Below, one piece after another: positions 646 to 22,021 of a stretch of 28,217 nt of DNA. The stretch covers positions 1 through 28,217 of the forward strand of contig JBDKUT010000045.1 of the NCBI GenBank assembly GCA_039679545.1, given 5' to 3'. Below the pieces are notes generated by a model. That model was not told where the DNA came from, ran no database searches, and saw only the letters and a list, made by a program, of their open reading frames with translations. This DNA is from Thermotogota bacterium (lineage in GTDB: Bacteria > Bipolaricaulota > Bipolaricaulia > UBA7950 > UBA9294). Each line of letters begins with the position of its first letter. The stretch's first letter is position 1. Both the position numbers and the translations under genes were made by a program.

Positions 646-693
646 GGGGAAACCTCGTCCACGCCGTCGGAAAGAACTGTACATCTCATACCC

Positions 694-722: not shown

Positions 723-767
723 GCATCCGGCCAGCCATGCTACAGCAACATCCGCAGGGAGGGAGAG

Positions 768-1313: not shown

Positions 1314-1317
1314 ATCG

Positions 1318-1460: not shown

Positions 1461-1467
1461 GATCGGG

Positions 1468-1496
1468 TAGACATCGTAGATAAATCATGCTAGGGT
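1468..1496 (+). promoter_or_regulatory. Putative promoter of TA module 1 (near-leaderless)
   Basis: TAGACA-17 nt-TAGGGT with an extended TGn; ATG 8 nt downstream and no Shine-Dalgarno. Confidence 0.45.
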
Positions 1497-1504
1497 ATAC
1501 GCCT

Positions 1505-1726
1505 ATGACCTCATCGACAGTGTCGGCGAAAGTGCCCGAGGAGCTGCGGAAGCAGCTTGAAGAGATTGCGAAGGCAGAGCGACGCACGACCAGCAATGTC
1601 ATCCAGCTCGCGATCGAGGACTTCGTCAGGCAGTACAACGAGATTCATCCGCAGTTCAGAGCTGACATCCTTGAGGCGCTCGAGCAGATGAAGACCGGCG
1701 ACGTAGTTCCTTACGAGTGGGGCTAG
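1505..1726 (+). CDS. Ribbon-helix-helix (CopG-like) antitoxin
   Basis: TVSAKVPEELRKQLEEIAKAERRTTSNVIQLAIEDF is an RHH pattern; lies directly upstream of a RelE-like ORF. Confidence 0.8.
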   Translation: MTSSTVSAKVPEELRKQLEEIAKAERRTTSNVIQLAIEDFVRQYNEIHPQFRADILEALEQMKTGDVVPYEWG

Positions 1727-1731
1727 AGCTC

Positions 1732-2022
1732 GTGACGTACACCCCAGTCCCGGTACGCAACTTCGACCGCATCAAGAAGAAGCTTCCGGCTGCTCTGAGA
1801 GCCGAGGTGGATCGGCAGGTCCGTGTGATCTGCGACAATCCTCTGCTCGGCGAAGAGAAGACGGGGGATCTGCGTGGCGTGTTCGTCCACAAGTTTCGAG
1901 CGGCAGGCAAGCTTTACCTTCTTGCCTACTGGCCTGACGCGGCCGGACGGACCATCACCCTCCTTGCTCTTAGCGGGCACGAGAACTTCTACCGCGACCT
2001 CAAGCGGTATCTCGCGAGCTGA
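1732..2022 (+). CDS. RelE/ParE-superfamily toxin
   Basis: ICDNPLLGEEKTGDLRGVFVHKF...YLLAY...LLALSGHENFYRDLK; GTG start at 1732 inferred. Confidence 0.85.
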   Translation: MTYTPVPVRNFDRIKKKLPAALRAEVDRQVRVICDNPLLGEEKTGDLRGVFVHKFRAAGKLYLLAYWPDAAGRTITLLALSGHENFYRDLKRYLAS

Positions 2023-2059
2023 GCCACGCGAGAGCCTGCCCATTGCGAAACTCGTAGCT

Positions 2060-2155
2060 CAGCATTCGTTGAGTTCATAGCGTTCTTGGAGTTTGTAGGG
2101 TTCCGTAACTGCAGCCGCGAACTGCGAACTACCCACTCCGCGCCCAACGAACGGC
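2060..2155. repeat. 9-mer and 7-mer degenerate tracts
   Basis: TTCGTTGAG TTCATAGCG TTCTTGGAG TTTGTAGGG TTC, then CGAACTG CGAACTA..., then CCCAACGAACGG. Confidence 0.6.
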
Positions 2156-2313
2156 CCGCGGAGCCGCCTGTTCGCCGCTGGGCGCCATGCTTAGTTCGGC
2201 GGCGGGCCATGAGGCTCAGCCGGATCCCCGCTCGCGGCCGTTGACAGGTGCGCCCGGATGCGATACGGATGTAGGTGTTCCGGATAGGCCAGAGAAAGGG
2301 AGGCGCAGATCGC

Positions 2314-3729: not shown

Positions 3730-3752
3730 GATACCGCGGCACAAGAAGGATC

Positions 3753-3790
3753 ACGGCGCGGCCCGCGTGGGCCGCGCCGTCTCTCTTTCT
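3753..3790 (+). terminator. Intrinsic terminator-like hairpin after the peptidase gene
   Basis: Perfect 12-bp stem ACGGCGCGGCCC-GCGT-GGGCCGCGCCGT followed by the pyrimidine tail CTCTCTTTCT. Confidence 0.75.
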
Positions 3791-3877
3791 CCGTACGCCA
3801 CGCACGCGAGAGTCGCACCAGAGTAGTCTCACATCCCTGTCGGACTCCCGGGCACATCGGTCCCAAGCCTAGGAATC

Positions 3878-4058
3878 GTAGCGAGTGGCCTGTGGCTCGT
3901 GGATTGTGGGAACTGCGTCCTGTCAGTGCTTCTCCTACGTGCCACAAACCACGTGCTACCAGCCGCCTTTCACAACCCAACGAACCGAATGAACTGGGCA
4001 CCGCGCACTGCGAACCAGTCGACGAACCTAGACGAGCGCGTCGAACTGCGCACCATGA
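3878..4058. repeat. Inverted 7-mer arms plus 9-mer/7-mer tracts
   Basis: TAGCGAG TGGCCTG TGGCTCG TGGATTG TGG versus CCACAAA CCACGTG CTACCAG CCGC; then CCCAACGAACCGAATGAAC. Confidence 0.6.
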
Positions 4059-4083
4059 CGCTTGAGCACTAAAGCGTTATAAT
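4055..4083 (+). promoter_or_regulatory. Promoter with embedded operator for TA module 2
   Basis: ATGACG-17 nt-TATAAT; inverted repeat ACGCTT(4058-63)...AAGCGT(4072-77). Confidence 0.6.
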
Positions 4084-4101
4084 GCCTCCCGGTGATCCGT
4101 G

Positions 4102-4326
4102 ATGACGAAGCGAGCGACGATCTACTTGGAGCCGGAGCTCCACACCGCGCTCAAGGTGAAGGCGGCCCATACCGAGCGATCGATGTCAGAACTCGTGAAC
4201 GAGGCAGTGCGCGAATCCCTTCGCGAGGACCAAGAGGATCTCCAGGCGTTTGCCGACCGCGCTGCCGAGCCGACGATGTCGTACGAAGCCCTCCTCGCCG
4301 ACCTCAAGGCGCATGGCAAGATATAG
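4102..4326 (+). CDS. CopG/RHH antitoxin
   Basis: KRATIYLEPELHTALKVKAAHTERSMSELVNEAVR is an RHH pattern; overlaps the downstream toxin. Confidence 0.85.
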   Translation: MTKRATIYLEPELHTALKVKAAHTERSMSELVNEAVRESLREDQEDLQAFADRAAEPTMSYEALLADLKAHGKI

Positions 4327-4573
4327 ACTCGAGATCAAGAAGAGCGTAGCCAAGGATCTACGCGGCATACCCCAAAAACACGTTGCGCGGATTCTGAAAC
4401 GGATTGCGGCATTGGCTGACGAGCCCCGAGGGCCCGATTCCGAGAAGCTGTCCAGCCGAGAGCTCTACCGAGTGCGACAAGGCAGCTACCGGATCCTCTA
4501 CGAGATCCGAGATGCTAACCACGTCGTTGTGGTCGTCAAGGTCGCCCATCGGTCCAAAGCCTACGGCTCGTAG
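4313..4573 (+). CDS. relE: RelE/StbE family mRNA interferase toxin
   Basis: MARYRLEIKKSVAKDL...EKLS...YRVRQGSYRILYEI...VVVKVAHR. Confidence 0.88.
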   Translation: MARYRLEIKKSVAKDLRGIPQKHVARILKRIAALADEPRGPDSEKLSSRELYRVRQGSYRILYEIRDANHVVVVVKVAHRSKAYGS

Positions 4574-4678
4574 ATGAGCTACTCGATTTCTCTGAGTTCG
4601 TTGAGTCCAGCAACCGGGTGGATAAGCCTCGAGTTGCCTTTCGGGACTCAAAGAACCCAACGAACTGGCCTCGGTCCA

Positions 4679-4750
4679 GGAGTTCCGCATCCGCCCTTTG
4701 CCTGCGGAACTCCCGAGCTGTCGGTCAACGCAGATCGACCGACAGCCACG
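4679..4750. repeat. Double-hairpin REP-like element (family A), copy 1
   Basis: GGAGTTCCGCA/TGCGGAACTCC stem, CGA linker, GCTGTCGGTC-10 nt-GACCGACAGC stem; 4703-4750 is identical to 8839-8886. Confidence 0.85.
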
Positions 4751-4881
4751 GACTGCGCACTGCGCACCCAACGAACCCGACGAATGCATCCCCACATGCC
4801 ACGAGCCGCCTCTCGTGAGCCAACGAACTCAACGAACGGCCCCTTGGCAACCGCCCTAACTTCCTCCATCCTTGTCACGTG

Positions 4882-6195
4882 ATGAAAGGCTTGAGCCGCT
4901 CCACTACGTGCACACTGAGGGGCAGATTGCCGATCGCCGCCACGATAGCGGTTGCCACCGTCCTCGCAGCCGGCGGATGCTTCCTCTTTCCCAACACCCT
5001 CCCAATCGCGGAGATCGACGCCGATCCCACGATGGGGATTGCGCCGCTCACCGTCGAGTTCGATGCCGGTGAATCCTACGATCCCGACGGCACGATCCGG
5101 CGGTACGAGTGGGATTTCGGCGACGGACACGAAGGCGCCGGAGTGCGGATCGACCACACCTACACGGCCGCCGGAGAGTACGAGGCCACCCTCACCGTAG
5201 TCGACAAGCGCGGAGGCCGGGCGACCGGCTCCGTCGAGATCGCCGTGCGCGGAGCGAACGAGCTACCTGTCGCCGCGTTCTCGGCGTACCCGTCTCCCGC
5301 CTATCCGCGGCAGACCGTCCGCTTTAACGCCGGCGCGTCCTACGACCCCGACGGGGAGATCGAGTCGTATGCGTGGAGCTACGGAGACGGCTCGACCGGC
5401 ACCGGTGCATCCGCATTCCACCAGTACGCCTCCGTAGGCTCCTACACCGTCACCCTCACAATTCGCGACAACGACAACGGCGAGAGGACCGCGACCACTA
5501 CAATCACCATCGTGACGACCATCGACACCTCCGGGACCGTGTCGCGGCACTACGAGTGGGAGTACGGCGGGCAGGATGAGAGCTGCGACCTCGAGATCTC
5601 GCTCGACCTCTACCGGTACTACAAGTCCCAGCCGCGCACCGCGTTCGTGAACAGAGACTACGACGAGTACGTCCTCGACCCGCTCGACGACGACGACCTC
5701 GAAGTCATCACCCAGGAGATCCTGAGCGGCGCGGGCGGCGACTACCACGCCCAGCTCGAGAACGCCCTCTTCTTCGTCCAGCACTGCGTCGAGTACGTCA
5801 ACGACCCGTACTGGTACGAGTACCCCCGCTACCCCATCGAGGTGCTCGTCGACCTGATCGGCGACTGCGAAGACACCGCCATCCTCTATACCAGCCTCGT
5901 CCGCACCCTCGGCCACGGAGCCCTCATGGTCGCCGTAGACACCAGCGGCGACGGCGTCGCCGACCACATGATCGCGTGGGTTCCCGTCGAGCAGAGCTTC
6001 ATCACCGCGCATCCCGACCGCAGCTTCTGGGACTACCACGGCAAGGTGTACGCCTTCGCCGAGACCGCCGTCGAAGGCGGCTACGTCCCCCTCGGCGTCG
6101 ACCCGTGGGGCCTGACGGCGGAAGACATCGACACTGTGTACGACGTGTCCAGTATCGACAGGGCTCCGCGAGCCCTGCTATTGCGAGGGCCGTAG
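4882..6195 (+). CDS. Lipoprotein with two PKD domains and a C-terminal transglutaminase-like (Cys-His) domain
   Basis: Lipobox LAAGGC; SYDPDG..YEWDFGDG and SYDPDG..YAWSYGDG PKD repeats; YPRYPIEVLVDLIGDCEDTAIL...HMIAW; start codon uncertain. Confidence 0.8.
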   Translation: MKGLSRSTTCTLRGRLPIAATIAVATVLAAGGCFLFPNTLPIAEIDADPTMGIAPLTVEFDAGESYDPDGTIRRYEWDFGDGHEGAGVRIDHTYTAAGEYEATLTVVDKRGGRATGSVEIAVRGANELPVAAFSAYPSPAYPRQTVRFNAGASYDPDGEIESYAWSYGDGSTGTGASAFHQYASVGSYTVTLTIRDNDNGERTATTTITIVTTIDTSGTVSRHYEWEYGGQDESCDLEISLDLYRYYKSQPRTAFVNRDYDEYVLDPLDDDDLEVITQEILSGAGGDYHAQLENALFFVQHCVEYVNDPYWYEYPRYPIEVLVDLIGDCEDTAILYTSLVRTLGHGALMVAVDTSGDGVADHMIAWVPVEQSFITAHPDRSFWDYHGKVYAFAETAVEGGYVPLGVDPWGLTAEDIDTVYDVSSIDRAPRALLLRGP

Positions 6196-6426
6196 TTGAG
6201 GAGATGAAGAGCGCTGTTGAGGCGCAGAGAAGCCGGAACCAGTTGTGGACCTGCTCATTGGCGGCTTGGCGCGACGCATTCGCCCAATACCGGCGTCCAC
6301 CGCACGCCGAAGGCCACACGGTCTACCCTCAGGGTCGTCCCTTGACGCAGCGGGCTGCCCCCCGAGTGAGAGACGCAGTCGCATCCATGCTTACTGCGTG
6401 GGCTCAACCCGATGGACACTCGGGGC

Positions 6427-7569
6427 CTACGGCCTCGGGATGAGTTGCGCTGGCTCCTCAAGGATTGCCAGTAGGTCAGTCGCGCAGTACGCGCGATCGC
6501 GCTGGCGGCCGTCGACCGGAGACAGGATGTTCTTGTCCACGAGGATGGAAATAGCGCGCGCCGCCGTCGTTCGCGCCACGCCCAGACGGTCTGCCACGTG
6601 CTTGGCGGTGACAAAGGGGTTCCCCGCAAGAAGATCGACGACTCGTGCGGGCGCGTCCGACCTCACTCCGCGTAGGTCCGCATGCCACTCGAGAACCAGG
6701 TCGCGCATGCGAGCCGCGCGGTCGACAGCGTCTTCCGACTGCCGCGCGACGCCGTTCAGGAAATAGACGAGCCAGTTCGCCCAGTCGGCCGCGCTCGTCA
6801 CCTCGCGCAGGCGGGTGTAGTAGTCGGAGCGGGTCGCCTCGAAGAACGCGCTTAGGTAGAGGAGTGGAGATGGGAGAACCCTGCTGTCTACGAGAAAGAG
6901 GCTGACGAGCAGCCGGCCGACGCGACCGTTCCCATCGAGGAACGGGTGAATCGCCTCAAACTGAACGTGCGCAAGCGCGGCCTGAACGAGTGGAGGGAGC
7001 GAACGATCCTGCAAGAACCGTTCCAAGTCGCGCAAGAGCGCAGGGACACGTGCGGGCGGCGGCGGAACGTACACTGCCGTATGCGGGGTCGAACCGGGAA
7101 GGCCGATCCAGTTCTGGATCGTGCGTACCTTCCCTGGTTGGGCGTGGCCGCCGCGCACCTCGCGCATCAGGAGAGCGTGGACTTCCTTCAGGAGCGAGAC
7201 GGAGAGGCCAAGAGCCGGCAACCGATCGATCCCGTGCTCAAGGGCGGCGACGTAGTTCGCGACCTCGCGCAGGTCTTCGGGACTCCGGTCGACGATCGCG
7301 CCAGCCTCCGCAGCGAGCAGCTCACCCAGCGTAGCCCGCGTGCCCTCGATTCGACTGGAGAGCACGGCCTCTCGCGCAACAAAGGGACGCATGAGGATGT
7401 GCGGATTCGGCAGTCCGCGGCCCTCGCCTGCGAGCCGCCCGATGGCCCGATCTGCGTCCGACATCGCGTGCACGATCTCCCTCGTCCACTCGAGAGTCGG
7501 CGGCAACGGGTTCGGGACGAAAGCCGAGTACCCTTCTTGGCTCTTGATCCACTCCCCTGGCTGAGGCAC
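6427..7569 (-). CDS. fic: Fic family AMPylase with N-terminal inhibitory motif and C-terminal HTH
   Basis: HPFLDGNGRVGR catalytic motif; SSRIEG matches (S/T)xxxE(G/N); C-terminal TAKHVADRLGVARTTA; GTG7569 follows GGAGGAG. Confidence 0.9.
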   Translation of the reverse strand: MPQPGEWIKSQEGYSAFVPNPLPPTLEWTREIVHAMSDADRAIGRLAGEGRGLPNPHILMRPFVAREAVLSSRIEGTRATLGELLAAEAGAIVDRSPEDLREVANYVAALEHGIDRLPALGLSVSLLKEVHALLMREVRGGHAQPGKVRTIQNWIGLPGSTPHTAVYVPPPPARVPALLRDLERFLQDRSLPPLVQAALAHVQFEAIHPFLDGNGRVGRLLVSLFLVDSRVLPSPLLYLSAFFEATRSDYYTRLREVTSAADWANWLVYFLNGVARQSEDAVDRAARMRDLVLEWHADLRGVRSDAPARVVDLLAGNPFVTAKHVADRLGVARTTAARAISILVDKNILSPVDGRQRDRAYCATDLLAILEEPAQLIPRP

Positions 7570-7585
7570 GTCTCCTCCCGTCGCT

Positions 7586-7729
7586 ATGAGCGTAAAGATA
7601 GAATAGCGCACATAACGTTCGATGCCAATGAGCGCACCCCCGTGCTCGACGCATCATAATGAGCGATGAAGGCCGAATGCGCTCATAACGTCCTCGCCCT
7701 GTGAGCGGAACCCGCCGCATTCCGTTCAC
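7586..7729. promoter_or_regulatory. Array of four operator-like inverted repeats upstream of fic
   Basis: RTGAGCG-N14/15-CGYWCAY-like boxes starting at 7586, 7628 (degenerate), 7659 and 7701. Confidence 0.6.
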
Positions 7730-7807
7730 GCGGCCCTGTTTCCCACATGCCGCCTCTCGTAACCCAACGAACTGCCCAGCCGACCAGGAGAAGCCAGCCC
7801 CACACAA

Positions 7808-7920
7808 GGAGTTCGGCGACGTGTCGCGGACACCGACCGAACTCCCGAGCTGCTCGAAAACCTGAGAGATCGAGCAGCCCAACTCCCCGAGCTACTCAGC
7901 ACCGCAGCCCGCTGAGTAGC
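7808..7920. repeat. Family A hairpin cluster, copy 2 (three hairpins)
   Basis: GGAGTTCGG/CCGAACTCC; GCTGCTCGA-12-TCGAGCAGC; GCTACTCAGC-10-GCTGAGTAGC. Confidence 0.85.
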
Positions 7921-8018
7921 CACGAACCCAACGAACTCAACGAACTCAACGAATCGGCCAGCCTCCGAGCCACGCACCGCGAACCGCGAACCGCGCACTC
8001 CGAGCCCAACGAACCCAA
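7921..8018. repeat. 9-mer then 7-mer tandem tracts
   Basis: CACGAACCC AACGAACTC AACGAACTC AACGAA; CGAGCCA CGCACCG CGAACCG CGAACCG CGCACTC CGAGCCC. Confidence 0.8.
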
Positions 8019-8088
8019 GTGACTCGCGCGCACACCGGGAACGCTATAATCCTTCAAGCTCGTTCGGCATGGGCGGAGCGGAGGCGCG

Positions 8089-9017: not shown

Positions 9018-11870
9018 ATGACCACCCCTGAGCAACGCGCCCGCGAAGTGATCGACAAGAAGCTCGCCGAGTCCGGCTGGGTTGTGCAGAGCCGGGACGA
9101 GATCAATCTCTCCGCCGGGCCGGGCGTCGCGGTGCGTGAGTTCGTTCTCGAACCTGGTCACGGCCACGCGGACTACCTTCTCTTCGTCGACGGGAAGGCT
9201 GTCGGAGCGCTCGAAGCGAAGCCTGAGGGGTATCCCTTGACGAGCGTCGAGGGGCAGGGTGCGAAGTACACGGCGGGCCTTCCGTACTCGATCTCGGCGT
9301 CCGCGCCGGTGAGCCCGCTGCCGTTCGTCTATCTCAGCACCGGGAGCGAGACGAAGTTCGCGAACGGCCTTGATCCCGAGCCACGCAGCCGGAGCATCTT
9401 CCAGTTCCATCGCCCTGAGACTCTTCGCGCCTGGGTCGAAGCCGACACGCTGCCCCAGTGGATCCACGACTGGCATCCTGAGACGGGCGAGTACGCCCAC
9501 AACCCGAAGCGCCCATCCTCCCTGCGCGCACGCCTGCAGGCGATGCCGCCCGTCCTGCGCGGCAGCCTCTACGACAACCAGTTCCGCGCCGTCGCGAACC
9601 TAGAGAAGTCGCTCCGCGAGGATCGGCCGCGCTCGCTCATCCAGATGGCCACCGGCTCCGGCAAGACGATCATGGCGATCACGTCCATCTACCGCCTGAT
9701 CAAGTACGCCGGCGCCTCGCGCGTCCTCTTCCTCGTCGACCGCAAGAACCTCGGCGAGCAGGCCGAGAAGGAGTTCGGGAACTACCGCACGCCCGACGAC
9801 CACCGCAAGTTCACCGAGCTGTACAACGTCCAACGGCTCCAGTCGAACACCATCGGCGCGTCGAGCAAGGTCGTCATCTCGACCATCCAGCGCCTCTACT
9901 CGATGCTCCAGGGAGAGGCCGAACTCGATCCCGCGCTCGAGGAGGAGTCGCTGTGGGAAAAGGACGGCGCGCTGTCGAAAGAAGCGCTGCCCGTCGTCTA
10001 CAACCCGGCCATCCCGCCTGAGCACTTCGACGTCATCTTCGTCGACGAGTGCCACCGCTCGATCTACTCCTTGTGGCGCCAGGTACTCGACTACTTCGAC
10101 GCCTACCTCGTCGGCCTCACCGCCACGCCCGCCGCGCACACCTACGGCTTCTTCCAGCGGAACCTCGTGATGGAGTACAGCCACGAGGAGGCCGTCGCCG
10201 ACAACGTCAACGTCGACTTCGAGGTCTACAACATCCGCACCCGGATCACGAAAGAAGGCGCGACCATCCGGCCCGGCGACTACCAACTCGGCATCCGCGA
10301 TCGGCAGACCCGCCGCGTACGTTGGGAGCGGCCCGACGAGCCCCTGACCTACAGCGCCAACGACCTCGACCGAGCCGTCGTCGCCGAGGACCAACTCCGG
10401 ACGATCATCAGGACCTTCCGCGACAAGCTGCCCACCGAGATCTTCCCCGGCCGACGCGAGGTGCCGAAGACGCTCATCTTCGCCAAGGACGACTCGCACG
10501 CCGAGGACATCGTCAAGATCGTGCGCGAGGAGTTCGGCAAGGGAAACGACTTCTGCCAGAAGATCACGTACAAGTCGACGGACAAGAAGCCGTCCGACCT
10601 CATCCAGGAGTTCCGCGTGAGCTACAACCCGCGCATTGCCGTGACCGTCGACATGATCGCGACCGGCACCGACATCAAGCCGATCGAGATCGTCATGTTC
10701 ATGCGCAGCGTCCAGAGCCGCGTCCACTTCGAGCAGATGAAAGGCCGCGGCGTGCGTGTCGTCGACCAAACGACGCTCCAGGGCGTGACGCCCGAGGCGC
10801 AAGCGAAGACGCACTTCGTCATCGTCGACTGCGTCGGCGTCACCGAGGGACCGCTCTCCGACACCCAGCCGCTCGAACGCAAGAAGACGATCTCGTTCGA
10901 CGCGCTGCTCGAGCACGTCGCTCTCGGCGGAACCGATCCGGACTACCTGTCGTCGCTCGCCGCCCGCCTCGCGCGGCTCGACCGCCAGTGCGGCGACGAA
11001 GAGAAGAAGCGGATCAGCGATGCGGCCGGCGGCACGAGGCTGGCCGACATCGTCCACGGTATCGTCCGTGCCCTCGATCCCGACGAGCAGGCGGCCGTGG
11101 CCCGCATCGCGCAGAGCCTGCCCGAGGACGTCGAACCGAAGCCTGCTGACGTGGACGCTGCAGCGAAGACGCTGCTCATGGAGGCGGCGGCGCCGCTTGC
11201 GACGAAGCCCGCGCTACGGCAGCTCCTGATCGCGACGAAGCGGTCGTTCGAGCAGATCATCGACGACGTCAGCCTTGACGAGCTTCTCGAGGCCGGCACC
11301 TCCGAAGAAGCGCGCGACAAGGCGCGCGCTCTTGTGCGCTCCTTTGAGCAGTTCCTCGCCGAGAAGAAGGGCGAGATTGAGGCGCTTGAGTTCTTCTACT
11401 CGCAGCCGTACAAGAGGCGGATCTCGTTCGCCGACATCAAGGCCTTGCACGCGGCGATCAAGGCGCCGCCGCGGCTCCTGACGCCGGAGCGGCTGTGGGC
11501 GGCCTACAAGCTCCTCGAGCAGAACAAGGTGCGTGGCGCGAGCAGCCAGCGGAAGCTGGCCGACATCGTCTCGCTCGTGCGGTTCGCCCTGCACCAAGAA
11601 CCAGAGCTGGTTCCCTACGCAGACGGTGTACAGGTTCGCTTCGAGCATTGGATGGCGACGCAGGAGTTGGGCGGGCGGTCGTTCACCGTCGAGCAGCGGC
11701 GGTGGTTGGAGATGATTCGCGATCACATTGCGCAGAGTCTTGAGATCACGCCCGACGACTTCGGCTACGCTCCGTTCGTTGAGGAGGGCGGTCTGGGCAA
11801 GGCACGACAGGTTCTGGGCCCGGATCTCACGAAGCTGATGGATGAGCTGAATGGAGCGCTCGTCTCATGA
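9018..11870 (+). CDS. hsdR: Type I restriction enzyme R subunit (EcoEI/EcoAI-like)
   Basis: ADYLLFVDGKAVGALEAK nuclease motif, QMATGSGKT, DECHRS, LTATP, MIATGTD, QMKGRG, and an EcoEI-type C-terminus. Confidence 0.95.
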   Translation: MTTPEQRAREVIDKKLAESGWVVQSRDEINLSAGPGVAVREFVLEPGHGHADYLLFVDGKAVGALEAKPEGYPLTSVEGQGAKYTAGLPYSISASAPVSPLPFVYLSTGSETKFANGLDPEPRSRSIFQFHRPETLRAWVEADTLPQWIHDWHPETGEYAHNPKRPSSLRARLQAMPPVLRGSLYDNQFRAVANLEKSLREDRPRSLIQMATGSGKTIMAITSIYRLIKYAGASRVLFLVDRKNLGEQAEKEFGNYRTPDDHRKFTELYNVQRLQSNTIGASSKVVISTIQRLYSMLQGEAELDPALEEESLWEKDGALSKEALPVVYNPAIPPEHFDVIFVDECHRSIYSLWRQVLDYFDAYLVGLTATPAAHTYGFFQRNLVMEYSHEEAVADNVNVDFEVYNIRTRITKEGATIRPGDYQLGIRDRQTRRVRWERPDEPLTYSANDLDRAVVAEDQLRTIIRTFRDKLPTEIFPGRREVPKTLIFAKDDSHAEDIVKIVREEFGKGNDFCQKITYKSTDKKPSDLIQEFRVSYNPRIAVTVDMIATGTDIKPIEIVMFMRSVQSRVHFEQMKGRGVRVVDQTTLQGVTPEAQAKTHFVIVDCVGVTEGPLSDTQPLERKKTISFDALLEHVALGGTDPDYLSSLAARLARLDRQCGDEEKKRISDAAGGTRLADIVHGIVRALDPDEQAAVARIAQSLPEDVEPKPADVDAAAKTLLMEAAAPLATKPALRQLLIATKRSFEQIIDDVSLDELLEAGTSEEARDKARALVRSFEQFLAEKKGEIEALEFFYSQPYKRRISFADIKALHAAIKAPPRLLTPERLWAAYKLLEQNKVRGASSQRKLADIVSLVRFALHQEPELVPYADGVQVRFEHWMATQELGGRSFTVEQRRWLEMIRDHIAQSLEITPDDFGYAPFVEEGGLGKARQVLGPDLTKLMDELNGALVS

Positions 11871-13411
11871 GGAACTGCATTCCATCCAACTGGACCATCG
11901 CCAGGCTCGGGGATCTTGGTCAGTACTACAACGGGCGGGCATTCAAAGAGTCGGAGTGGAAGTCGACCGGCCGCCCGATCATACGAATCCAGAATCTGAC
12001 CGGATCAGGCTCCGAGATTCACTACTACGACGGAGATGTGGATGCCCGGAACGAAGCGCACGCCGGCGACCTCTTGGTCTCGTGGGCCGCAACGCTTGGT
12101 GCATACATCTGGGACGGCCCTCCCGCAGTCATCAACCAGCACATCTTCAAGGTCGAAAGCCTGATCAACAAGCGCTTCCACTTCTACTCCATCCAGGACG
12201 CTCTCGATGACCTCTATCGGCGCTCACACGGCACCGGGATGGTTCACGTCACTCGCGGCGTCTTCGACGAGACTAAGATCGGGCTTCCGCCACTGAGCGA
12301 ACAGGAGCGCATCGTCGAGGCGATCGAGTCGTACTTGACGCGGCTGGACAACGCGGTCGCGCTCTTGGAGCGGGTGGAAGAGAACCTGAAGCGGTATCGC
12401 GTTTCGGTCCTCAAGGCTGCCGTCGAGGGCCGTCTCGTGCCGACTGAGGCCGAGCTGGCACGACGCGAGGGAAGAACCTATGAGCCCGCGAGCGACCTCT
12501 TGAAGCGCATCCTCGCCGAGCGCAAGACGCGCTGGATCGAAGACGCTGCCGAGAAGGCTCGCGCCAAAGCCGAGGAGAGGGCACACAAGAACGGCCAGCC
12601 ATGGACAGTCAAGGACAACGCCGCGGTCCTCGACAAGGAACGCGCCAAGGTCGCCAAGCAGTACAAGGAACCTGCTGCCCCGGACACGACCGATCTCCCC
12701 AAGCTCCCCGAAGGTTGGTGCTGGGCCACACTGGAGTCCATCTTCGCGTCAATCACTGACGGGGATCATGTCGCTCCGCCACAGTCACCGGAGGGGATTC
12801 CGTTCCTGGTGATTGGCGACGTGCGCGACGGCACGATCCACCTACTGGGGACGCGACATGTTCCACGCGAGTACTACGTACAACTCGATCCAGCAAGGAA
12901 GCCGACCGTGGGGGATATCCTCTACACGGTAACGGGATCGTTCGGCATACCCGTCTTCGTTGATAGTGATGTTGAGTTCTGCGTTCAGAGGCACATCGCG
13001 ATCTTGCGCCCGGCTCCAGAAGTGAATGCCCGCTTCCTCACAAAGCTGCTTCGATCGCAACCGGTGTTTCTGCAAGCGTCCGATGCCGCGACTGGTACGG
13101 CGCAGAAGACGGTCGGCCTCCAGAAGCTCCGGGTAATCACGGTGCCTCTTCCTCCGGAACCGGAACAGAACAGGCTCCTCGGTGAGCTGGAGCGAGCTGA
13201 GTCACTTGCGCTGTCAGTGGGTGCCGCGATTCTGAGGGCGACATCCCGTGCCGTTCGCCTGCGCCAGTCGATCCTCAAGTGGGCGTTCGAGGGGAAGCTC
13301 GTCAAGCAGGACCCGAGCGACGAACCTGCGTCGGTCTTGCTCGAGCGGATCAAGGCGGAGCGAGCGCTCAACGGTGCGCCGAGACGCGGGCGAAGGAGGC
13401 GTGATGGCTAG
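11867..13411 (+). CDS. hsdS: Type I R-M specificity subunit with two TRDs
   Basis: IPSNW..., LPPLSEQERIV, LPEGWCW, LPPEPEQ, LRQSILKWAFEGKLV, DEPASVLLERI; ATGA overlap with hsdR. Confidence 0.93.
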   Translation: MRNCIPSNWTIARLGDLGQYYNGRAFKESEWKSTGRPIIRIQNLTGSGSEIHYYDGDVDARNEAHAGDLLVSWAATLGAYIWDGPPAVINQHIFKVESLINKRFHFYSIQDALDDLYRRSHGTGMVHVTRGVFDETKIGLPPLSEQERIVEAIESYLTRLDNAVALLERVEENLKRYRVSVLKAAVEGRLVPTEAELARREGRTYEPASDLLKRILAERKTRWIEDAAEKARAKAEERAHKNGQPWTVKDNAAVLDKERAKVAKQYKEPAAPDTTDLPKLPEGWCWATLESIFASITDGDHVAPPQSPEGIPFLVIGDVRDGTIHLLGTRHVPREYYVQLDPARKPTVGDILYTVTGSFGIPVFVDSDVEFCVQRHIAILRPAPEVNARFLTKLLRSQPVFLQASDAATGTAQKTVGLQKLRVITVPLPPEPEQNRLLGELERAESLALSVGAAILRATSRAVRLRQSILKWAFEGKLVKQDPSDEPASVLLERIKAERALNGAPRRGRRRRDG

Positions 13412-13925
13412 TCAAGAACCAGCAGCTGCGCGCGAAAGGACCGACTCCAAGCTTCGCTATGCCGCTGTGCACTTGGAGGAACTCCGGGCCATGCAGCGCC
13501 GGGGAAGTGATCCTGAGCGAGCGCATCAGGAGTCGTACCTCTTTCACTTGCTCGGCGTGCCAGACGCGCTTCTCCAGGAGATGAACGCCCAATACGCCCT
13601 GGGCCTCACGCAGAGAAGAGTGTCCGTGTCATCAATTGCCACAGAGCTACATGCAGCTGGGCGTACGTCAGGGGCGCTGACGCACATGCTCGCGGTCGAG
13701 CGGGATCCAAAGAGCTGGCTGAACTGCGCGAAGGATATGCGCAACCACGTTACGCACCGCGCGAGTGTGCCGCGGCACTTCTACCAGGGTGGCCCAAGAC
13801 ACAACCAGGCATCGCTTGTTGACACGCGAACGAACAAGGAGATTGACCAGGACTACTTGGTGCTCTATGACGGCTGGTTCTCAGACATGAACGCTTTCGT
13901 GAAGGACGTTCGAAGCAAGATGTAG
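13404..13925 (+). CDS. Hypothetical alpha-helical protein with HEPN-like RxxxxH motif
   Basis: RBS AAGGAGG; overlaps the hsdS stop; ends 9 nt before hsdM; ...WLNCAKDMRNHVTHR... Confidence 0.65.
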   Translation: MASQEPAAARERTDSKLRYAAVHLEELRAMQRRGSDPERAHQESYLFHLLGVPDALLQEMNAQYALGLTQRRVSVSSIATELHAAGRTSGALTHMLAVERDPKSWLNCAKDMRNHVTHRASVPRHFYQGGPRHNQASLVDTRTNKEIDQDYLVLYDGWFSDMNAFVKDVRSKM

Positions 13926-13934
13926 TGGAGGCGA

Positions 13935-15464
13935 ATGCCCGAGTCGACGCAGCAACTGACAAGCAAGCTCTGGTCGTACTGCCACGTCCTGCGCGACGAC
14001 GGACTGAGCTACCAGGACTACCTGGAGCAACTCACGTTCCTCCTCTTCCTCAAAATGGCCGACGAGCGCGAGGCGCAAGGAAAGCCGAACCCAGTACCTG
14101 AAGGCTATCGCTGGCGCGACCTATCGGCCCCGCACATGGAGGGCTCGCGGCTTGAGGACCATTACCGCAAGACGCTCGAAGACCTTGGGAAGAAGGGTGG
14201 GATGCTCGGCCTCATCTTCCGCAAGGCGCAGAACAAGGTTCAGGACCCGGCCAAGCTGCGGCAGCTCATCGTCGAGCTGATCGGAAAAGAAGAGTGGCTG
14301 TCGCTCACGGCCGACGTGAAGGGCGACGCCTACGAGGGCCTGCTCGAACGCAACGCCCAGGATGTGAAGTCGGGCGCCGGCCAGTACTTCACGCCGCGGC
14401 CGCTCATCGACAGGATCATCGACTGCATCCAGCCTCGGATTACCGAGACCGTGTGCGACCCGGCCTGCGGCACGGGCGGCTTCCTTCTCTCGGCCTACCA
14501 CTACATGGCTCGCCAGAGCCGCGACCTCGATCCCGATCAGAAGAAGCACCTCAGGTACAACGCCCTGCGCGGCGTCGAACTCGTCGACGGTGTGTCGCGC
14601 CTCTGCGCGATGAACCTACTCCTGCACGGCGTCGGGCCGGACGGCGATGAGGCTGATCCGCCGATCCGCACCGACGACAGCCTGCGCAACGAGCCGAGCG
14701 TGCACTACCCCGTCGTCGTCACCAATCCGCCGTTCGGCAAGAAGTCGAGCATCACGGTGGTCAACGAAGAGGGCGAGACCGACAAGCACACGATCAGCTA
14801 CAGCCGCCCCGACTTCTGGACCACGACGACGAACAAGCAGCTGAACTTCGTGCAGCACATCAAGAGCCTGCTCGAGCAGAACGGCCGCGCCGCTGTCGTC
14901 GTGCCCGACAACGTCCTGTTCGAGGGCGGCGCCGGCGAGACCGTGCGCCGCAAGCTGATGCACGAGTGCGACCTGCACACCGTCCTGCGCCTGCCGACCG
15001 GCATCTTCTACGCCCAGGGCGTCAAGGCCAACGTCATCTTCTTCGACCGCAAGCCGGCGAGCGAGACCCCGTGGACGAAGACGGTGTGGTTCTACGACCT
15101 GCGCACCAACATGCACTTCACCCTCAAGCAGAACCGCCTTGAGCGAAGCGCCCTCGACGAGTTCGTTGCCTGCTACCGCCCAGGAGATCGGCACAACCGG
15201 TCCGCAACCTGGACGCCCGAGACTCCCGAAGGCCGTTGGCGGCCGTACACGTACGACGAGATCATCCAGCGCGACAAAGCCAGCCTCGACATCTTCTGGC
15301 TGCGCGACGAGAGCCTCGAAGACTCCGCCAACCTCCCCGATCCCGACGTCCTCGCCGCCGAGATCATCGAAGACCTCCAAGCCGCGCTCGAAGAACTGCA
15401 AGCCATATCCGACGACCTGGCCCAGACCCCAGGAGCGAGAGAAGGAGATGCCGATGGCAGATGA
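13935..15464 (+). CDS. hsdM: Type I R-M N6-adenine methyltransferase
   Basis: GQYFTPR, DPACGTGGF, NPPF, LRLPTGIFYAQGVKANV. Confidence 0.96.
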   Translation: MPESTQQLTSKLWSYCHVLRDDGLSYQDYLEQLTFLLFLKMADEREAQGKPNPVPEGYRWRDLSAPHMEGSRLEDHYRKTLEDLGKKGGMLGLIFRKAQNKVQDPAKLRQLIVELIGKEEWLSLTADVKGDAYEGLLERNAQDVKSGAGQYFTPRPLIDRIIDCIQPRITETVCDPACGTGGFLLSAYHYMARQSRDLDPDQKKHLRYNALRGVELVDGVSRLCAMNLLLHGVGPDGDEADPPIRTDDSLRNEPSVHYPVVVTNPPFGKKSSITVVNEEGETDKHTISYSRPDFWTTTTNKQLNFVQHIKSLLEQNGRAAVVVPDNVLFEGGAGETVRRKLMHECDLHTVLRLPTGIFYAQGVKANVIFFDRKPASETPWTKTVWFYDLRTNMHFTLKQNRLERSALDEFVACYRPGDRHNRSATWTPETPEGRWRPYTYDEIIQRDKASLDIFWLRDESLEDSANLPDPDVLAAEIIEDLQAALEELQAISDDLAQTPGAREGDADGR

Positions 15465-16557
15465 ATCCCCCGGTGTAGTCCTTGATCGCCCTCTTGGCGA
15501 GGCGCTCCTATTCCAGGCGGTCAAGGAGAAGCTGATCGACGGCGACATAGCATTGGGAAACGGATACGTGTCCAAGCTACTCGCGAATCCGCCGTCGGCG
15601 GACTTGCTGCACAGAGCGTTCGAGCAGCTCGTTCTGTGCGGGAGAGTGTTCTTGCCATTCTGGACGCCCTCAGCGTGGGAGGGATGCGTCTTCGAAGACG
15701 GCCTGTTCGTGCCTCTTCAATCTGTGGAGGAGGAATCGCTCGTTCGCGTAACGGACCTAGCTCCCGAGGTGGTCGCTTCTCTCTTGCAGGATCGCGGAGT
15801 GCAGTGGAGTACCGAGAGACTCGTCTCCGAGTACGACAAGTATGTTGGCGCATTCGACAAAGCTGGAGAGGTGCTTTCGCCAGATGAGCTGAAGGTCGCG
15901 GACGTGTACATGGCATTGCTGCCTCTGCTTGGTCATGGCGACCGGCCGCTCATTACGGAGCGCCAGGCTGCTGCGTGGGAGAGGCTGGCCGTTGCCACAG
16001 AGACATTCAGGCCCGTGATCTCAGTGATCAAGGAGTATCGCCAGGTTCTCACGCAGTCGTTTGCGAATGGTCTTCTCAGTTCTGTTCCCGTTGGCGCTGC
16101 GAGTCTTCCGCACCTCAAGACGGCGTTGTGCGACGACACCTCGGAGAGGCTGACGCTGTTGCACTTTGCGTGCGGAGAACTGGGTATGCTTCCAATTGCA
16201 GCGGAATTGAGGAGCACGATCGTCATTGCCCAGTCGGATGCTGCCAGTGAGTTCAGAGTGAGGCTGAGGCAGTGGGCCGAATTGCTGAAGACGGCACCTG
16301 ACACCGCCATGAAGAGGATTGGCAGCAAACTGAGGTGGGCTAAGCGATTCAAAAGCACGGGGGTGCTGCTCAATCGTGGAAGGCAGCTGTTGGTAGGTGT
16401 TAGCGTCCCGGCAGCGCTAGCCGGCGCCTTGACGCTGAACCCGATTGTTACGGCTGCCGCAAGGGTGTGCGCGCTCGCCGGCGGTGCGATGCTTGGTGGT
16501 GAGAAGCTGATCAGAGCTTCGACCCGGTGGGCAAGCTTCGGACTGAAACGGCCATGA
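15454..16557 (+). CDS. Hypothetical protein with C-terminal hydrophobic hairpin
   Basis: RBS GAAGGAG; overlaps the hsdM stop; long ORF with visibly less GC-biased codons; LLVGVSVPAALAGALTLNPIVTAAARVCALAGGAMLGG. Confidence 0.65.
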   Translation: MADESPGVVLDRPLGEALLFQAVKEKLIDGDIALGNGYVSKLLANPPSADLLHRAFEQLVLCGRVFLPFWTPSAWEGCVFEDGLFVPLQSVEEESLVRVTDLAPEVVASLLQDRGVQWSTERLVSEYDKYVGAFDKAGEVLSPDELKVADVYMALLPLLGHGDRPLITERQAAAWERLAVATETFRPVISVIKEYRQVLTQSFANGLLSSVPVGAASLPHLKTALCDDTSERLTLLHFACGELGMLPIAAELRSTIVIAQSDAASEFRVRLRQWAELLKTAPDTAMKRIGSKLRWAKRFKSTGVLLNRGRQLLVGVSVPAALAGALTLNPIVTAAARVCALAGGAMLGGEKLIRASTRWASFGLKRP

Positions 16558-16638: not shown

Positions 16639-17655
16639 ATGAGTGACTCAGACAGGACTATCTGGGGAATCCACGCCGGGAGGATGGGCAGGGCAGACAA
16701 CCTCTTCCTGAAGAAGAACGTCATAGCTATTGGCTGGAATGAGATTGGCGATCCGTCTCGTATCGGCGGCGACCGAGAGGCGCTCAAGGCAAAGGTTGCC
16801 AGTACTCACCCTGACGGGAAGCCCGGGGCGGTTCCGGTCCATGCCGGACAGCTCTACCGCTTCATCACTGAGATTCAGGTGGGCGATCTCATCGCCTACC
16901 CGTCGAAGATCGACCGCGAGATCCACATCGGCAAGGTACTCGGGCCGCACCGCTACGACCCTGCTTTTGACGCGGAGTACCCGAATATCAGGAAGGTCGA
17001 GTGGCTTGGGAAGTTCCCGCGTACGCGCTTCTCCCAGGGGGCACTCTACGAGATAGGCTCGGCGTTGACGCTCTTCCAGATCAGGAACTACGCCGATGAG
17101 TTCGTCGCCGCTCTCACGGGGGAAGCACCAATTCCTGCGGACAGCGACGAGGCAACGGCAGCGATTGTCGCTGAGGAGATCGAAGCGACTACGCGCGACT
17201 ACGTCCTGAAGCGACTGGCCCAGGAGATGAAGGGCCATCCGCTCGAGGAGTTCGTGGCCCATCTGCTCGAGGCCATGGGATACAGAACGCGGGTTGCTGC
17301 GGTGGGAACCGACTCCGGCATCGACATCATCGCCCACAAGGACCATCTTGGGTTCGAGCCACCGATCATCAAAGTCCAGGTGAAGAGCACGGAAGGCAGC
17401 GTCGGCGACCCGGTCGTGTCCGCTCTGTACGGGAAGGTGAGCCCGAGCGAGTTCGGCTTGCTTGTCACCTTGGGCACCTTCACAACCCAGGCGCGAGCAT
17501 TCGCCCGTGAGAAGCCGAACCTCCGGTTGATCGACGGTGACGAGCTCGTGAACCTCGTCTTCGAGCATTACGAGCACTTCGACGCGAAGTACAAGGGACT
17601 GCTGCCGCTGAAGCAGATCTACGTGCCGGAGCCACTTGGCGGCGATGGGGAGTGA
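16639..17655 (+). CDS. mrr: Mrr-family (type IV-like) restriction endonuclease
   Basis: C-terminal Mrr_cat: LEEFVAHLLEAMGY...DSGIDII...VQVK...GLLVTLGTFT...LRLIDGDELV; N-terminal domain IWGIHAG...IAIGW. Confidence 0.85.
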   Translation: MSDSDRTIWGIHAGRMGRADNLFLKKNVIAIGWNEIGDPSRIGGDREALKAKVASTHPDGKPGAVPVHAGQLYRFITEIQVGDLIAYPSKIDREIHIGKVLGPHRYDPAFDAEYPNIRKVEWLGKFPRTRFSQGALYEIGSALTLFQIRNYADEFVAALTGEAPIPADSDEATAAIVAEEIEATTRDYVLKRLAQEMKGHPLEEFVAHLLEAMGYRTRVAAVGTDSGIDIIAHKDHLGFEPPIIKVQVKSTEGSVGDPVVSALYGKVSPSEFGLLVTLGTFTTQARAFAREKPNLRLIDGDELVNLVFEHYEHFDAKYKGLLPLKQIYVPEPLGGDGE

Positions 17656-17898
17656 GTGAGCCGTACCTTGGTTGCCAGATGAAACCCGAGTACCTGCGGA
17701 AGGGCGCGCATCCGCGCCGCGGAACGGTGCGCATCATCGGATGCGGGAGAGCGGAGGCAGTTCGGGCGGAGCAGCCGGTGTCTGCAAGTTGTCGCTGCAG
17801 AAACGGGCGATGTGTTGCACAAGGCCGTGTTCCGGCTGGGCGGCAGTAGCGAGAACCCGCTAGGTCGAGTTGAGGAACAGGACCGAGAGGAGGGCGCG

Positions 17899-19005
17899 GT
17901 GACAGATGTCGTTCGCAGTCACAAGTCCCAATGTTTCGTCATGATGCCATCGGGGCTCCACGATGAGTACAAGGACGGCAAGAAGGAAGCCGACTTCGTC
18001 TACAACGGTATTGTTCGAAAGGCGATCCTCGAGGCATTCGGAGGAGACGTTGCGGTAGTACGGGAAACTGACAGCAGAAAGCCCGGTGCAATCACACGCT
18101 CCATCATCGAGCATGTCGCAGGGGCGGACATCTGTATCGTGGATATCACAGGTCAGAACCCGAATGTCTTCCTTGAACTCGGCATTCGCTACGCGCTCAG
18201 AAGGAGCTGCACCATCCTGCTGAAGCAGGAAGAAACCGCCAACCCATTTGACATCCACAACTACCGATGTGTGGTGTACAGCCCAAGGTTCGAGGGGGTC
18301 GAGAAGGCGATTCGGGACATCGCTGATGCGATTCACAGTGTACTCACTCTGTCGAAGCAGCAGCGGCTCTATACCGACAGCCTTGTCTTCGAGGTCTACC
18401 CTGAGATGGCAGTGACGATCCCAGGTGTCATACGCGAGCCTGAGGAGGAGACGCTCTCCGCACAACACATGCCCTGGAGCGAGTACTGGAACCAATTGGA
18501 GAGAGTAGTCGAGAAGATGCGCAACTACTTCCAGGATGGTCGCTTTGTGCCGGACGTGGTACTCGGCATATCGAATGGCGGGCTGGTGTACGCAGACCTT
18601 TTGGGGCGCGAGCTATTCAGCGGAATCCCTATCCTTTCGTTGTGGGCAGACAGACAGAACAAGGAAGGCAAGTTCTTTGAGAACGCGATCAATGAAGCAG
18701 TGGTCGGAGCTATCTCCCGTCTTTCCTCCTCGTCTCGCGAACACGCAAGCATTCTTCTTGTGGACGACATCGTCGCGTCCGGGAACACAGTCGTACAGGC
18801 GCTGAACTACCTGAAGAAGCGCATTCCGTTCGGCGAGATCGTCTTCTTGCCGCTGTTCAGCAGGAACGAGAAGTATTTCGACCTGATCAAGGACGACGTG
18901 ATCTGGCTGTCTGAGCTCTTCAACTGGACGGAAGAAGCGATAGTCGGAATGCATGCGACCGATAGGATCTACTTGCCCTACGAGAAGGAAATCCGTTCCA
19001 CGTAG
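17899..19005 (+). CDS. Fusion of a nucleoside 2-deoxyribosyltransferase/TIR-like domain and a type I phosphoribosyltransferase domain
   Basis: N-terminal CFVMMP...ADICIVDITGQNPNVFLELGIRYAL...PFDI; C-terminal PDVVLGISNGGLV...ILLVDDIVASGNT...LPYEK; GTG17899 follows GAGGAGG. Confidence 0.75.
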   Translation: MTDVVRSHKSQCFVMMPSGLHDEYKDGKKEADFVYNGIVRKAILEAFGGDVAVVRETDSRKPGAITRSIIEHVAGADICIVDITGQNPNVFLELGIRYALRRSCTILLKQEETANPFDIHNYRCVVYSPRFEGVEKAIRDIADAIHSVLTLSKQQRLYTDSLVFEVYPEMAVTIPGVIREPEEETLSAQHMPWSEYWNQLERVVEKMRNYFQDGRFVPDVVLGISNGGLVYADLLGRELFSGIPILSLWADRQNKEGKFFENAINEAVVGAISRLSSSSREHASILLVDDIVASGNTVVQALNYLKKRIPFGEIVFLPLFSRNEKYFDLIKDDVIWLSELFNWTEEAIVGMHATDRIYLPYEKEIRST

Positions 19006-19041: not shown

Positions 19042-19101
19042 GAGATCGGGGGACGCGTACCTCAACTCAGCCGAGGTGGGGGAGTTGAGGTATGTGTCCC
19101 C
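19042..19101. repeat. REP-like palindrome (family B), copy 1
   Basis: GAGATCG + GGGGACGCGTACCTCAACTC-13 nt-GAGTTGAGGTATGTGTCCCC (20-bp stem with two G-T pairs). Confidence 0.8.
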
Positions 19102-19191
19102 GCCGCGGGCGGCACGCCGCGAGGGTCTGGTCCTGTATTCCGGTAGTCGAGCACCGCTGTCGCCGATGACGGGCGTGTGGCGAGGGCGTGC

Positions 19192-19268
19192 GGCACGCAC
19201 GAAACACCTGTCAGGTTCGCTAGCTTGTCTGCGAGGGGAACCAGCGCCAGCCGGAGCCCTCGGACGCA
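19192..19268 (-). repeat. Orphan copy of the MBL-hydrolase gene 3' end
   Basis: 19226-19268 is identical (43 nt) to 21079-21121; GGCACGCAC and CCTGTCAG are also shared. Confidence 0.8.
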
Positions 19269-19894: not shown

Positions 19895-20230
19895 ATGGCC
19901 GAGTACACCCCGCGTCGGGGCGACTTCGTCGCCGTCGGCTTCGATCCGCGGACCGGCCACGAGCAGAGCGGGCGGCGCCCGGCGCTCGTCGTGAGCCACG
20001 ACCTGTTCAACCGCAAGACCGGACTCGCCTTCGTCTGTCCGGTGACCAGCACGCATCGCGGATACCCGTTCCACGTGGCGATCCCCGAGGGTAGCGCCGT
20101 GACAGGGTTCGTCATGGTCGAGCAAATGCGGACCATTGACTACCGCGCGAGACAGGCGAAGCGAATCGGGACGGCTCCGGAGGCCGTGCTCGAAGAGGCT
20201 CTGGCGCTTCTCGACGCGTGCCTCTTCTAG
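19895..20230 (+). CDS. mazF: MazF/PemK endoribonuclease toxin
   Basis: YTPRRGD...FDPRTGHEQSGRRPALVVS...CPVTS...YPFHV...EQMRTIDY. Confidence 0.93.
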   Translation: MAEYTPRRGDFVAVGFDPRTGHEQSGRRPALVVSHDLFNRKTGLAFVCPVTSTHRGYPFHVAIPEGSAVTGFVMVEQMRTIDYRARQAKRIGTAPEAVLEEALALLDACLF

Positions 20231-21902: not shown

Positions 21903-21963
21903 GAGATCGGGGGGACACGTACTTTGACTCGGCCGAGGCGAGGGAGTTGAGGTACACGTCCCC
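21903..21963. repeat. REP-like palindrome (family B), copy 2
   Basis: GAGATCGG GGGGACACGTACTTTGACTC-13 nt-GAGTTGAGGTACACGTCCCC; downstream GCCGCGG..GCGGCACGCCGC is shared with copy 1. Confidence 0.8.
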
Positions 21964-22021
21964 GCCGCGGATGGCCGCCGCGAGCGGCACGCCGCAAGGC
22001 ACGCACTAGCTGATGCGCCTG

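Follow-up and report, generated by a model that had tools for sequence, protein, structure and literature searches.

A glycosidase-like domain fused to a phosphoribosyltransferase fold: a rare bacterial gene family with a possible role as a one-gene immune effector

The closest tested analogues of the N-terminal domain described here are BcTpr (BcTir/Tpr) and the Thoeris type VIII protein ThsI, rather than the retron effector RcaT, which a sequence-only reading of the locus had given as an example. The MilB-like N-terminus of BcTpr carries the residues N80-P81-N82 and E86, and the substitutions N82A and E86A impair NAD+ depletion and abolish defence (bioRxiv 10.1101/2023.05.26.542521, preprint); ThsI, the effector of a cADPR system, joins a 'CMP hydrolase' domain to TPRs and is hypothesised to change nucleotide pools upon cADPR activation (bioRxiv 10.64898/2025.12.03.692087, preprint). 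Phosphoribosyltransferase (PRT) domains have been described in other systems: in ShosT a hydrolase domain is linked to a PRT, and both sites are required (PMC11961720, PMC12961424), while the toxicity of ShosT and of the retron Eco11 effector comes from binding or depleting PRPP (PMC11961720, PMC12961424, PMC12746101). Activation of the Eco11 PRT halves PRPP, and its fold is nearest to the xanthine-guanine and purine PRTases (PMC12746101). In Kongming, KomB is a housekeeping salvage-type nucleotide enzyme fold that has been repurposed as the sensor for an NADase. Domain surveys describe the DRHyd domains of conflict systems as NADase effectors or cyclases (Iyer et al., 2022), and report that TIR, DRHyd and EAD domains interchange at the N-terminus of core components and that EADs sit on effectors too (Kaur et al., 2020, 2021). 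DUF4062 is likewise reported as a TIR-like NADase family.

The fusion described here resembles each of these systems in part. With BcTpr and ThsI it shares an N-terminal MilB-like glycosidase, for which control by the C-terminal domain is proposed, and with BcTpr also the N-P-N-x3-E motif (the comparison covers the motif); those two proteins, however, have a C-terminal TPR and a separate TIR gene, whereas the fusion has a PRT fold and no recurring TIR partner. Like ShosT, it is a two-domain protein of hydrolase and type I PRT, with DD in the PRPP loop, without the Hpt/Gpt Asp and in a defence context, but the hydrolase of ShosT is a pyrophosphatase and ShosT needs the DprA-like antitoxin ShosA, while the N-domain of the fusion is MilB-like. 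Only in the PRT motif does the sequence resemble ShosT (PADLOC, E 1.6e-5, residues 200-325), the arrangement that defines ShosTA (a PPase-PRT toxin beside a DprA-like ShosA) is not found, and no DprA-like neighbour occurs in the scanned loci. The retron type III-A PRTase effectors (Retron-Eco11) have a purine-PRTase-like fold and a similar degenerate PRPP loop; unlike the fusion, they include a winged HTH, require RT and msDNA, and lack a glycosidase domain. The PADLOC match to the retron III-A PRTase is weak and at the level of a motif, the adjacent reverse transcriptase and ncRNA of type III-A retrons are missing, and no RT family occurs among 243 scanned neighbours. Finally, TIR-STING/Cap12, PycTIR and KomB-KomC resemble the fusion as it is proposed to work below, in that a nucleotide-binding module gates an NAD-cleaving module, but the fusion has no nearby CD-NTase, cyclase or deaminase, and its putative sensor is a PRT fold. 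The adjacent CD-NTase, cyclase or ThsB-type TIR typical of CBASS, Pycsar and Thoeris effectors is absent here, and none of these recurs as a neighbour across loci.

The features of the window, that is, the whole stretch of 28,217 nucleotides that was analysed, are collected in Table 1. The fusion gene has a GC content of 54.6% against 65.0% for the genome, which places it below the first percentile (57.9%) of 2047 windows of the same size; no promoter or terminator signal above chance was found. An imperfect palindrome of about 60 nt lies at 19048-19113, 43 nt past the stop codon, and occurs again at 21910-21975; a second element at 19207-19268 has further copies at 21060 and 22018. The copies of both are found on this contig alone and may be insertion marks of toxin-antitoxin (TA) and defence cassettes. 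At 620-8030, short AACCCAACGAAC-type repeats (families D2, D6, D9 and D10) lie in the intergenic regions that separate small TA-like and accessory genes and give this part of the contig a cassette-like look.

Table 1. Position of the fusion gene, of its domains and motifs, and of neighbouring genes in the window
Feature	Position	Strand	Remarks
Type I R-M cluster (hsdR, hsdS, HEPN-like gene, hsdM)	9018..15464	+	PADLOC, Pfam
Small HEPN-like gene between hsdS and hsdM	13407-13925		DUF6586 and Cthe_2314-like, both below cut-off
Orphan 367-aa ORF between hsdM and Mrr gene	15454-16557		candidate defence gene
Mrr-family nuclease	16639..17655	+	Pfam Mrr_cat; PADLOC PDC-S02 E 1.6e-137
Ribosome-binding site GAGGAGG	17887..17893	+	5 nt upstream of GTG start
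Fusion gene	17899..19005	+	single open frame, 368 codons, GTG 17899 to TAG 19005
N-terminal DRHyd (MilB/NDT/TIR-like) domain	17923..18402	+	residues about 9-168
N87-P-N89-V-F-L-E93 motif	18157..18177	+	spacing as in BcTpr N80-P81-N82...E86
Type I PRTase-fold domain	18463..18996	+	residues about 189-366, Gpt/archaeal HGXPRT-like
PPi loop GISNGG	18565..18582	+	residues 223-228
R252, after strand 3	18652..18654	+	likely phosphate/pyrophosphate ligand (inferred)
PRPP loop LLVDDIVASGNT	18754..18789	+	residues 286-297
PemK/MazF toxin, first of several downstream TA modules	19895..20230	+	Pfam

The joining of the two domains is neither a product of chance nor an assembly artefact, since most of the listed homologues are full-length (110 of the 119 non-self matches listed cover at least 90% of the query, with 37-70% identity), a contig from a second sample (X2) runs through the gene without a single difference, and near-identical pieces of it occur in another study (X3). 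The AlphaFold2 model of the protein, built from an alignment of 102 sequences (mean pLDDT 91, pTM 0.71), consists of two Rossmann-like domains. Searches with the whole model in Foldseek gave mostly spurious multi-domain matches, and VIA-align was relied on for the fold comparisons instead. Both domain assignments of the sequence-only reading, an NDT/TIR-like domain with a Glu motif plus a PRTase domain at the C-terminus, were borne out by fold and profile matches, and the three motifs that it named (NPNVFLELG, GISNGG and LLVDDIVASGNT) are all present. No NCBIfam model scores the protein above its threshold.

In the model, residues 8-161 best match MilB (Z 12.1, rmsd 3.2, 138 aligned), with a plant TIR tied within 1 of it (Z 11.2), the NDTs at Z 9.8-11.2 and the TIR of TIR-STING at Z 10.1; residues 21-132 also partially match the PADLOC 'Effector/TIR' profile PDLC00733 (E 1.8e-13). 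The motif NPNVFLELG spans residues 87-95, and all 102 aligned sequences keep N87, N89, D82 and the presumed catalytic E93; the further invariant columns include G19, E30, E56, G63, T84, G85, V90, G95, R97, P116, F117, D118 and Y127. Over a larger set of 162 fusions (157 read by pattern, 3 by eye, 2 truncated) no substitution of the catalytic Glu was seen. The domain also has a family-specific loop, G19-x3-EY-x2-G-x2-E30, and a C-terminal D160-S-L-V-F segment. It gives no match at E 0.1 to PF05014, the family of the classical 2'-deoxy-specific NDT/DNPH1 enzymes, and the aromatic residue of strand 1, which would be equivalent to the Tyr that NDTs have beside the catalytic Glu, is Phe in 87/102 sequences and Tyr in 3/102. 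The nearest relatives of the N-domain on plasmids are 'TRAFs-binding domain' (DRHyd-TPR-S) proteins, and the DRHyd domains closest to it in other families occur in proteins that add TPR-S/TRAF-binding, TPR, Macro, TIR or a second NDT-like domain. Together with the published work on BcTpr, ThsI and conflict-system DRHyd domains, this makes it a well-founded prediction that the domain acts as a glycosidase on NAD+ or a ribonucleotide. The same N-domain subclade occurs in L110/L111 (P0180), P0202, P0244 and P0205 with other, mostly unassigned, C-termini or a TIR, and L111 has an FtsK/SpoIIIE gene in its vicinity; for the C-terminus of P0180 a PLD-like/DUF5919 identity was considered and found no confirmation.

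The C-terminal domain has both the fold and the PRPP loop of a type I PRTase (PF00156 over residues 202-342, E 1.7e-12; 47.4 bits against a cut-off of 26.3). In the model, the best match of about residues 188-363 is archaeal HGXPRT (Z 14.0, rmsd 2.9, 139 aligned), and H. pylori XGHPRT and related purine PRTases are also close (Z 13-14). The domain shares with Gpt/HGXPRT (PDB 4z1o, 7kl6, 1vdm, 4trb) the fold, the N-terminal W-x-E helix, the GG loop and the DD pair, but the identity is 17-24%, and the domain lacks the Asp after DDxx, is fused and is sporadic. Among 198 PRT copies, the acidic pair and the 5'-phosphate loop are almost always kept (D289 in 197, D290 in 196, T297 in 193), as are R252 (194), N226 and G228 of the GISNGG loop (188 and 197) and the C-terminal Y361 and K363 (187 and 190). 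Position 293, where 4z1o, 4trb and the Hpt of the host have the Hpt/Gpt Asp, is variable in the same copies (A 94, G 48, S 18, F 13, Y 11, D 1). In Hpt/Gpt enzymes this Asp (DDxxD/EDxxD) acts as general base. The scores against the Hpt/Gpt equivalog models are far below their cut-offs (20.6 against 150 bits and 19.6 against 138), and the score against PRTase-CE (PF24390; Nicastro et al., 2023) is 19.9 bits, below its cut-off of 27; a canonical Hpt is encoded elsewhere in the host genome.

Because the PRPP residues are kept and the Asp is gone, the PRT domain probably still binds a phosphoribosyl ligand and, judged by its motifs, is not a standard Hpt/Gpt. The earlier label of a 'purine-type' PRTase thus holds for the fold and fails for the catalytic motif. 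The loss of the Asp is no proof of inactivity, since ShosT and the Eco11 effector also lack it and are toxic through PRPP; by analogy with them it is a mark of PRTs of the defence type and is compatible with a sensor as well as with an enzyme. In ESM feature space, the clusters nearest to the PRT domain (18451-19002) are stand-alone tailed-phage/Minisyncoccota proteins of 170-204 aa (score 0.91); tblastn found no phage record that matches the domain.

Of 5142 candidates in a word-indexed search, 203 proteins reached E 0.001 or better. Both domains are present in 175 of 263 proteins, three of which are copies of the query, and about 170 full-length fusion proteins were found. The carriers that could be named are metagenome-assembled genomes of Deltaproteobacteria, Acidobacteriota, Bacteroidota, Verrucomicrobiota, Actinomycetota, Planctomycetota, Chloroflexota and Calditrichota. 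None of 60 relatives of the host has the full fusion gene, one of them having a match to the N-domain only, and the PRT clade occurs in 1/250, 1/400 and 0/400 genomes sampled around three carriers, many of these genomes being incomplete; both new matches from these 1050 genomes are the same fusion. Of 38 loci, 29 have a gene whose GC content falls short of that of its flanks by at least 0.03; in 5 the gene exceeds them and in 4 it equals them. The matches in viral loci (37) are to the N-domain alone, and none of the 74 matched plasmid records covers more than 80% of the query. The family is rare, sporadically spread and accessory. Its N-domain is the more conserved half (mean pairwise identity 50%, against 40% for the PRT domain), and the pairwise identities of the two domains correlate (r = 0.77, 5151 pairs). 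In five homologues (L018, L112, L103, L113 and L016) the protein is split into two ORFs, for which a frameshift, a pseudogene or an assembly error are all possible.

The same PRT clade is also found C-terminal to other domains: TIR_2 in six non-redundant proteins (P0210, P0216, P0221, P0230, P0262 and P0266), EAD11 in two (P0217 and P0241), DUF4062 in one (P0168), and two N-termini that have no assigned family. Inspection by eye shows a catalytic Glu in both the TIR and the DUF4062 partners. A FastTree tree of 173 PRT domains, with 25 fragments set aside, requires 10 changes to accommodate the 11 non-DRHyd fusions, and in a subset of 39 rows (the non-DRHyd rows, their nearest neighbours and 12 random ones; quick tree, LG+G4) the AU test rejects a single clade of TIR fusions (p-AU 0.000187) and a single clade of all non-DRHyd fusions (p-AU 1.7e-36). 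Since the tree needs these changes and the single clades are rejected, the N-terminal slot has seen repeated swaps, in most cases for a different N-glycosidase fold that also bears the Glu. Few in number, the non-DRHyd fusions are for the most part metagenome singletons, and the list of architectures is a lower bound (further homologue searches for other PRT fusions returned 7 and 11 proteins). The second feature match in the ESM Atlas is a cluster of 50 CAP12-TIR+PRT members (score 0.84), a lead whose PRT may belong to the same clade. An HTH suspected at the N-terminus of P0201 was supported neither by Pfam and NCBIfam nor by a small local HTH profile, and this N-terminus is counted as unassigned.

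In the window, the fusion gene lies 243 nt past the Mrr-family gene, at the end of the R-M/Mrr cluster, as had been read from the sequence; as a conserved trait this position did not hold up, for no neighbour family recurs. The orphan ORF between hsdM and the Mrr gene has no match in PADLOC, NCBIfam, Pfam or PHROGs. An all-against-all comparison of 1393 ORFs from 54 loci and the window revealed no conserved partner gene, which agrees with the earlier view of a stand-alone gene; the recurring families are only near-duplicate contigs, integrases and a few pairs. The neighbours of 32 loci were scanned with heuristic gene calling, and 30 loci remained once L081 (too short) and L111 (not a fusion) were dropped. 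Defence or TA genes lie near the fusion in 12 of the 30, a count that does not include a background rate: a clear defence gene stands within about 5 kb in six (AbiU2-HEPN and PIN in L003, AbiU/AIPR in L004, Shedu in L009, PDC-S33 in L078, TIR-TM in L082 and Septu in L091), a weak candidate in two (L011 and L086) and TA genes in four (L005, L008, L014 and L106). Mobile-element genes alone occur in five loci (L079, L085, L089, L094 and L112), L089 being classed here through the role that we take DUF1670 to have, and the remaining 13 of the 30 lack all three kinds of gene (defence, TA, mobile) over the same distance of about 5 kb. This context gives moderate support to a defence role. TIR genes adjoin two loci and are of other types (TIR-TM in L082, a TIR-Septu fusion in L091). 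The purine-salvage operons that the sequence-only reading had named as the setting that would speak against defence were looked for and found in none of the 30 loci; in L005 the fusion lies amid pyrimidine-degradation-like genes (an amidohydrolase and a dihydropyrimidine dehydrogenase-like gene), where a HEPN-nucleotidyltransferase pair is also inserted.

Some neighbours deserve separate mention. In L003, the gene directly upstream of the fusion (L003:5051-7570) encodes a protein of 839 aa that combines a related DRHyd domain with many TPRs, and in L091 the homologue is directly preceded by a 1771-aa TIR-WD40-GTPase-DUF4365-PtuA fusion (L091:1408-7529), then PtuB. An AAA_35-like ATPase adjoins the fusion in L011 and L204 (in L204 by eye), which may reflect a frequent gene type. 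The radical SAM neighbours of L003, L004, L014 and L099 belong to different families and were ruled out as partners.

A mechanism can be proposed from these observations. PRPP or a 5'-phosphoribosyl nucleotide is the predicted ligand of the PRT-fold domain, which would switch on the N-terminal glycosidase, with either a rise or a fall in the ligand as a possible trigger. The glycosidase would then break the N-glycosidic bond of NAD+ or of a ribonucleotide, and the infected cell would be arrested. The cue would be a host metabolite change caused by the phage or a signal made elsewhere in the cell, because no dedicated signal synthase recurs nearby. That the fusion is such a one-gene, ligand-gated immune effector, with a PRT sensor gating a swappable NAD+/NMP glycosidase, is the reading preferred here, tentatively and at somewhat less than an even chance; the architecture suggests the sensor, and homology the glycosidase/NADase. 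The variable TIR/DRHyd/EAD slot on a constant core fits the pattern of sensor-type core components in the surveys, the N-domain is elsewhere fused to Macro, TPR and TPR-S domains, KomB is a precedent for a housekeeping nucleotide enzyme turned into the sensor of an NADase, and the accessory distribution of the gene counts in favour as well. Several points may be held against this reading: ShosT and the Eco11 effector, the two defence PRTs characterised so far, are themselves toxic; the retention of D289, D290, R252 and T297 in 193-197 of 198 copies fits catalysis as well as binding; EAD fusions can mark effectors as well as cores; clear defence genes stand near 6 of the 30 loci; and the non-DRHyd fusions are scarce. 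Of the mechanisms listed in the sequence-only reading, the domain swaps favour the one in which a sensor gates the hydrolase and make a chain that 'breaks and makes base-ribose bonds' less favoured.

The latter corresponds to two coupled enzymes, an unlikely but serious alternative in which the glycosidase would free a base from NMP or NAD+ and the PRT would recouple it with PRPP, in a futile drain or to form a toxic or signalling nucleotide. Its precedents are ShosT, with its two required sites, and the Eco11 PRT, with its effect on PRPP and its xanthine-guanine/purine PRTase-like fold; every PRPP-contact residue is conserved in the fusion, the two domains diverge together, and most swapped partners are also N-glycosidase folds. 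EAD11, however, is a non-enzymatic adaptor that could not feed such a cycle, the variation at position 293 suggests a loosely constrained base site, TIR and DUF4062 release nicotinamide, which is normally salvaged by a different PRT fold, and a constitutive cycle without antitoxin or partner gene would need an off-switch of its own. It is improbable that the PRT is instead the toxic effector and the N-terminal module acts upstream of it, as an infection sensor, a maker of an ADPR-derived signal or an EAD-like oligomerisation adaptor: an adaptor would need no invariant Glu, the N-domain is the more conserved half, and a second DRHyd gene was seen in one of the loci examined. In favour of this reading, EADs link core components with effectors, signals can be made by TIR and DRHyd domains, the known defence PRTs are effectors, and in L003 the second DRHyd-TPR protein lies directly upstream. 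More improbable still is a metabolic or house-cleaning enzyme outside defence, which would strip an unusual base from a nucleotide and salvage it. The fold matches are salvage enzymes, source records automatically name the protein hypoxanthine phosphoribosyltransferase, many loci lie between housekeeping genes, and L005 has its degradation-like neighbours; but no salvage or biosynthetic neighbour recurs, L005 is one locus in 30 and has the inserted HEPN-nucleotidyltransferase pair, the scores lie far under the Hpt/Gpt cut-offs in a host with a canonical Hpt, and TIR and EAD fusions are typical of conflict systems. Taken together, the sensor, coupled-enzyme and PRT-effector readings make a conflict or defence role a prediction of high probability.

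Each half of the protein is a known type of defence domain; their combination and the swappable PRT clade appear to be undescribed. No description of a glycosidase-PRT fusion was found in the searchable literature, although the supplements of the Aravind-lab surveys may list the architecture, a full-text search found no paper on a TIR domain fused to a PRT domain in a phage context, and no PADLOC or NCBIfam model covers both domains, in line with the earlier remark that the fusion belongs to no named system. PRT domains in anti-phage systems have so far been known as toxic effectors (ShosT, retron III-A). The fusion sets one beside a type of enzyme with a simple readout, the cleavage of NAD+ or NMP, in a single 40-kDa chain, and the natural TIR, DUF4062 and EAD swaps provide built-in comparisons, so that this family could answer whether PRT folds serve as immune sensors or as PRPP-draining enzymes. 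A broader proposal, rather unlikely as it stands, is that the Gpt-derived PRT clade is a new immune receptor module with a role comparable to that of STING, SAVED and cNMP-binding domains, which would read PRPP or a phosphoribosylated nucleotide and plug interchangeably into DRHyd, TIR, CAP12-TIR, DUF4062 and EAD domains, to form single-gene metabolic guards without a dedicated signal synthase. If the sensor reading is true, bacterial immunity would gain a further class of receptor and perhaps also a new danger signal.
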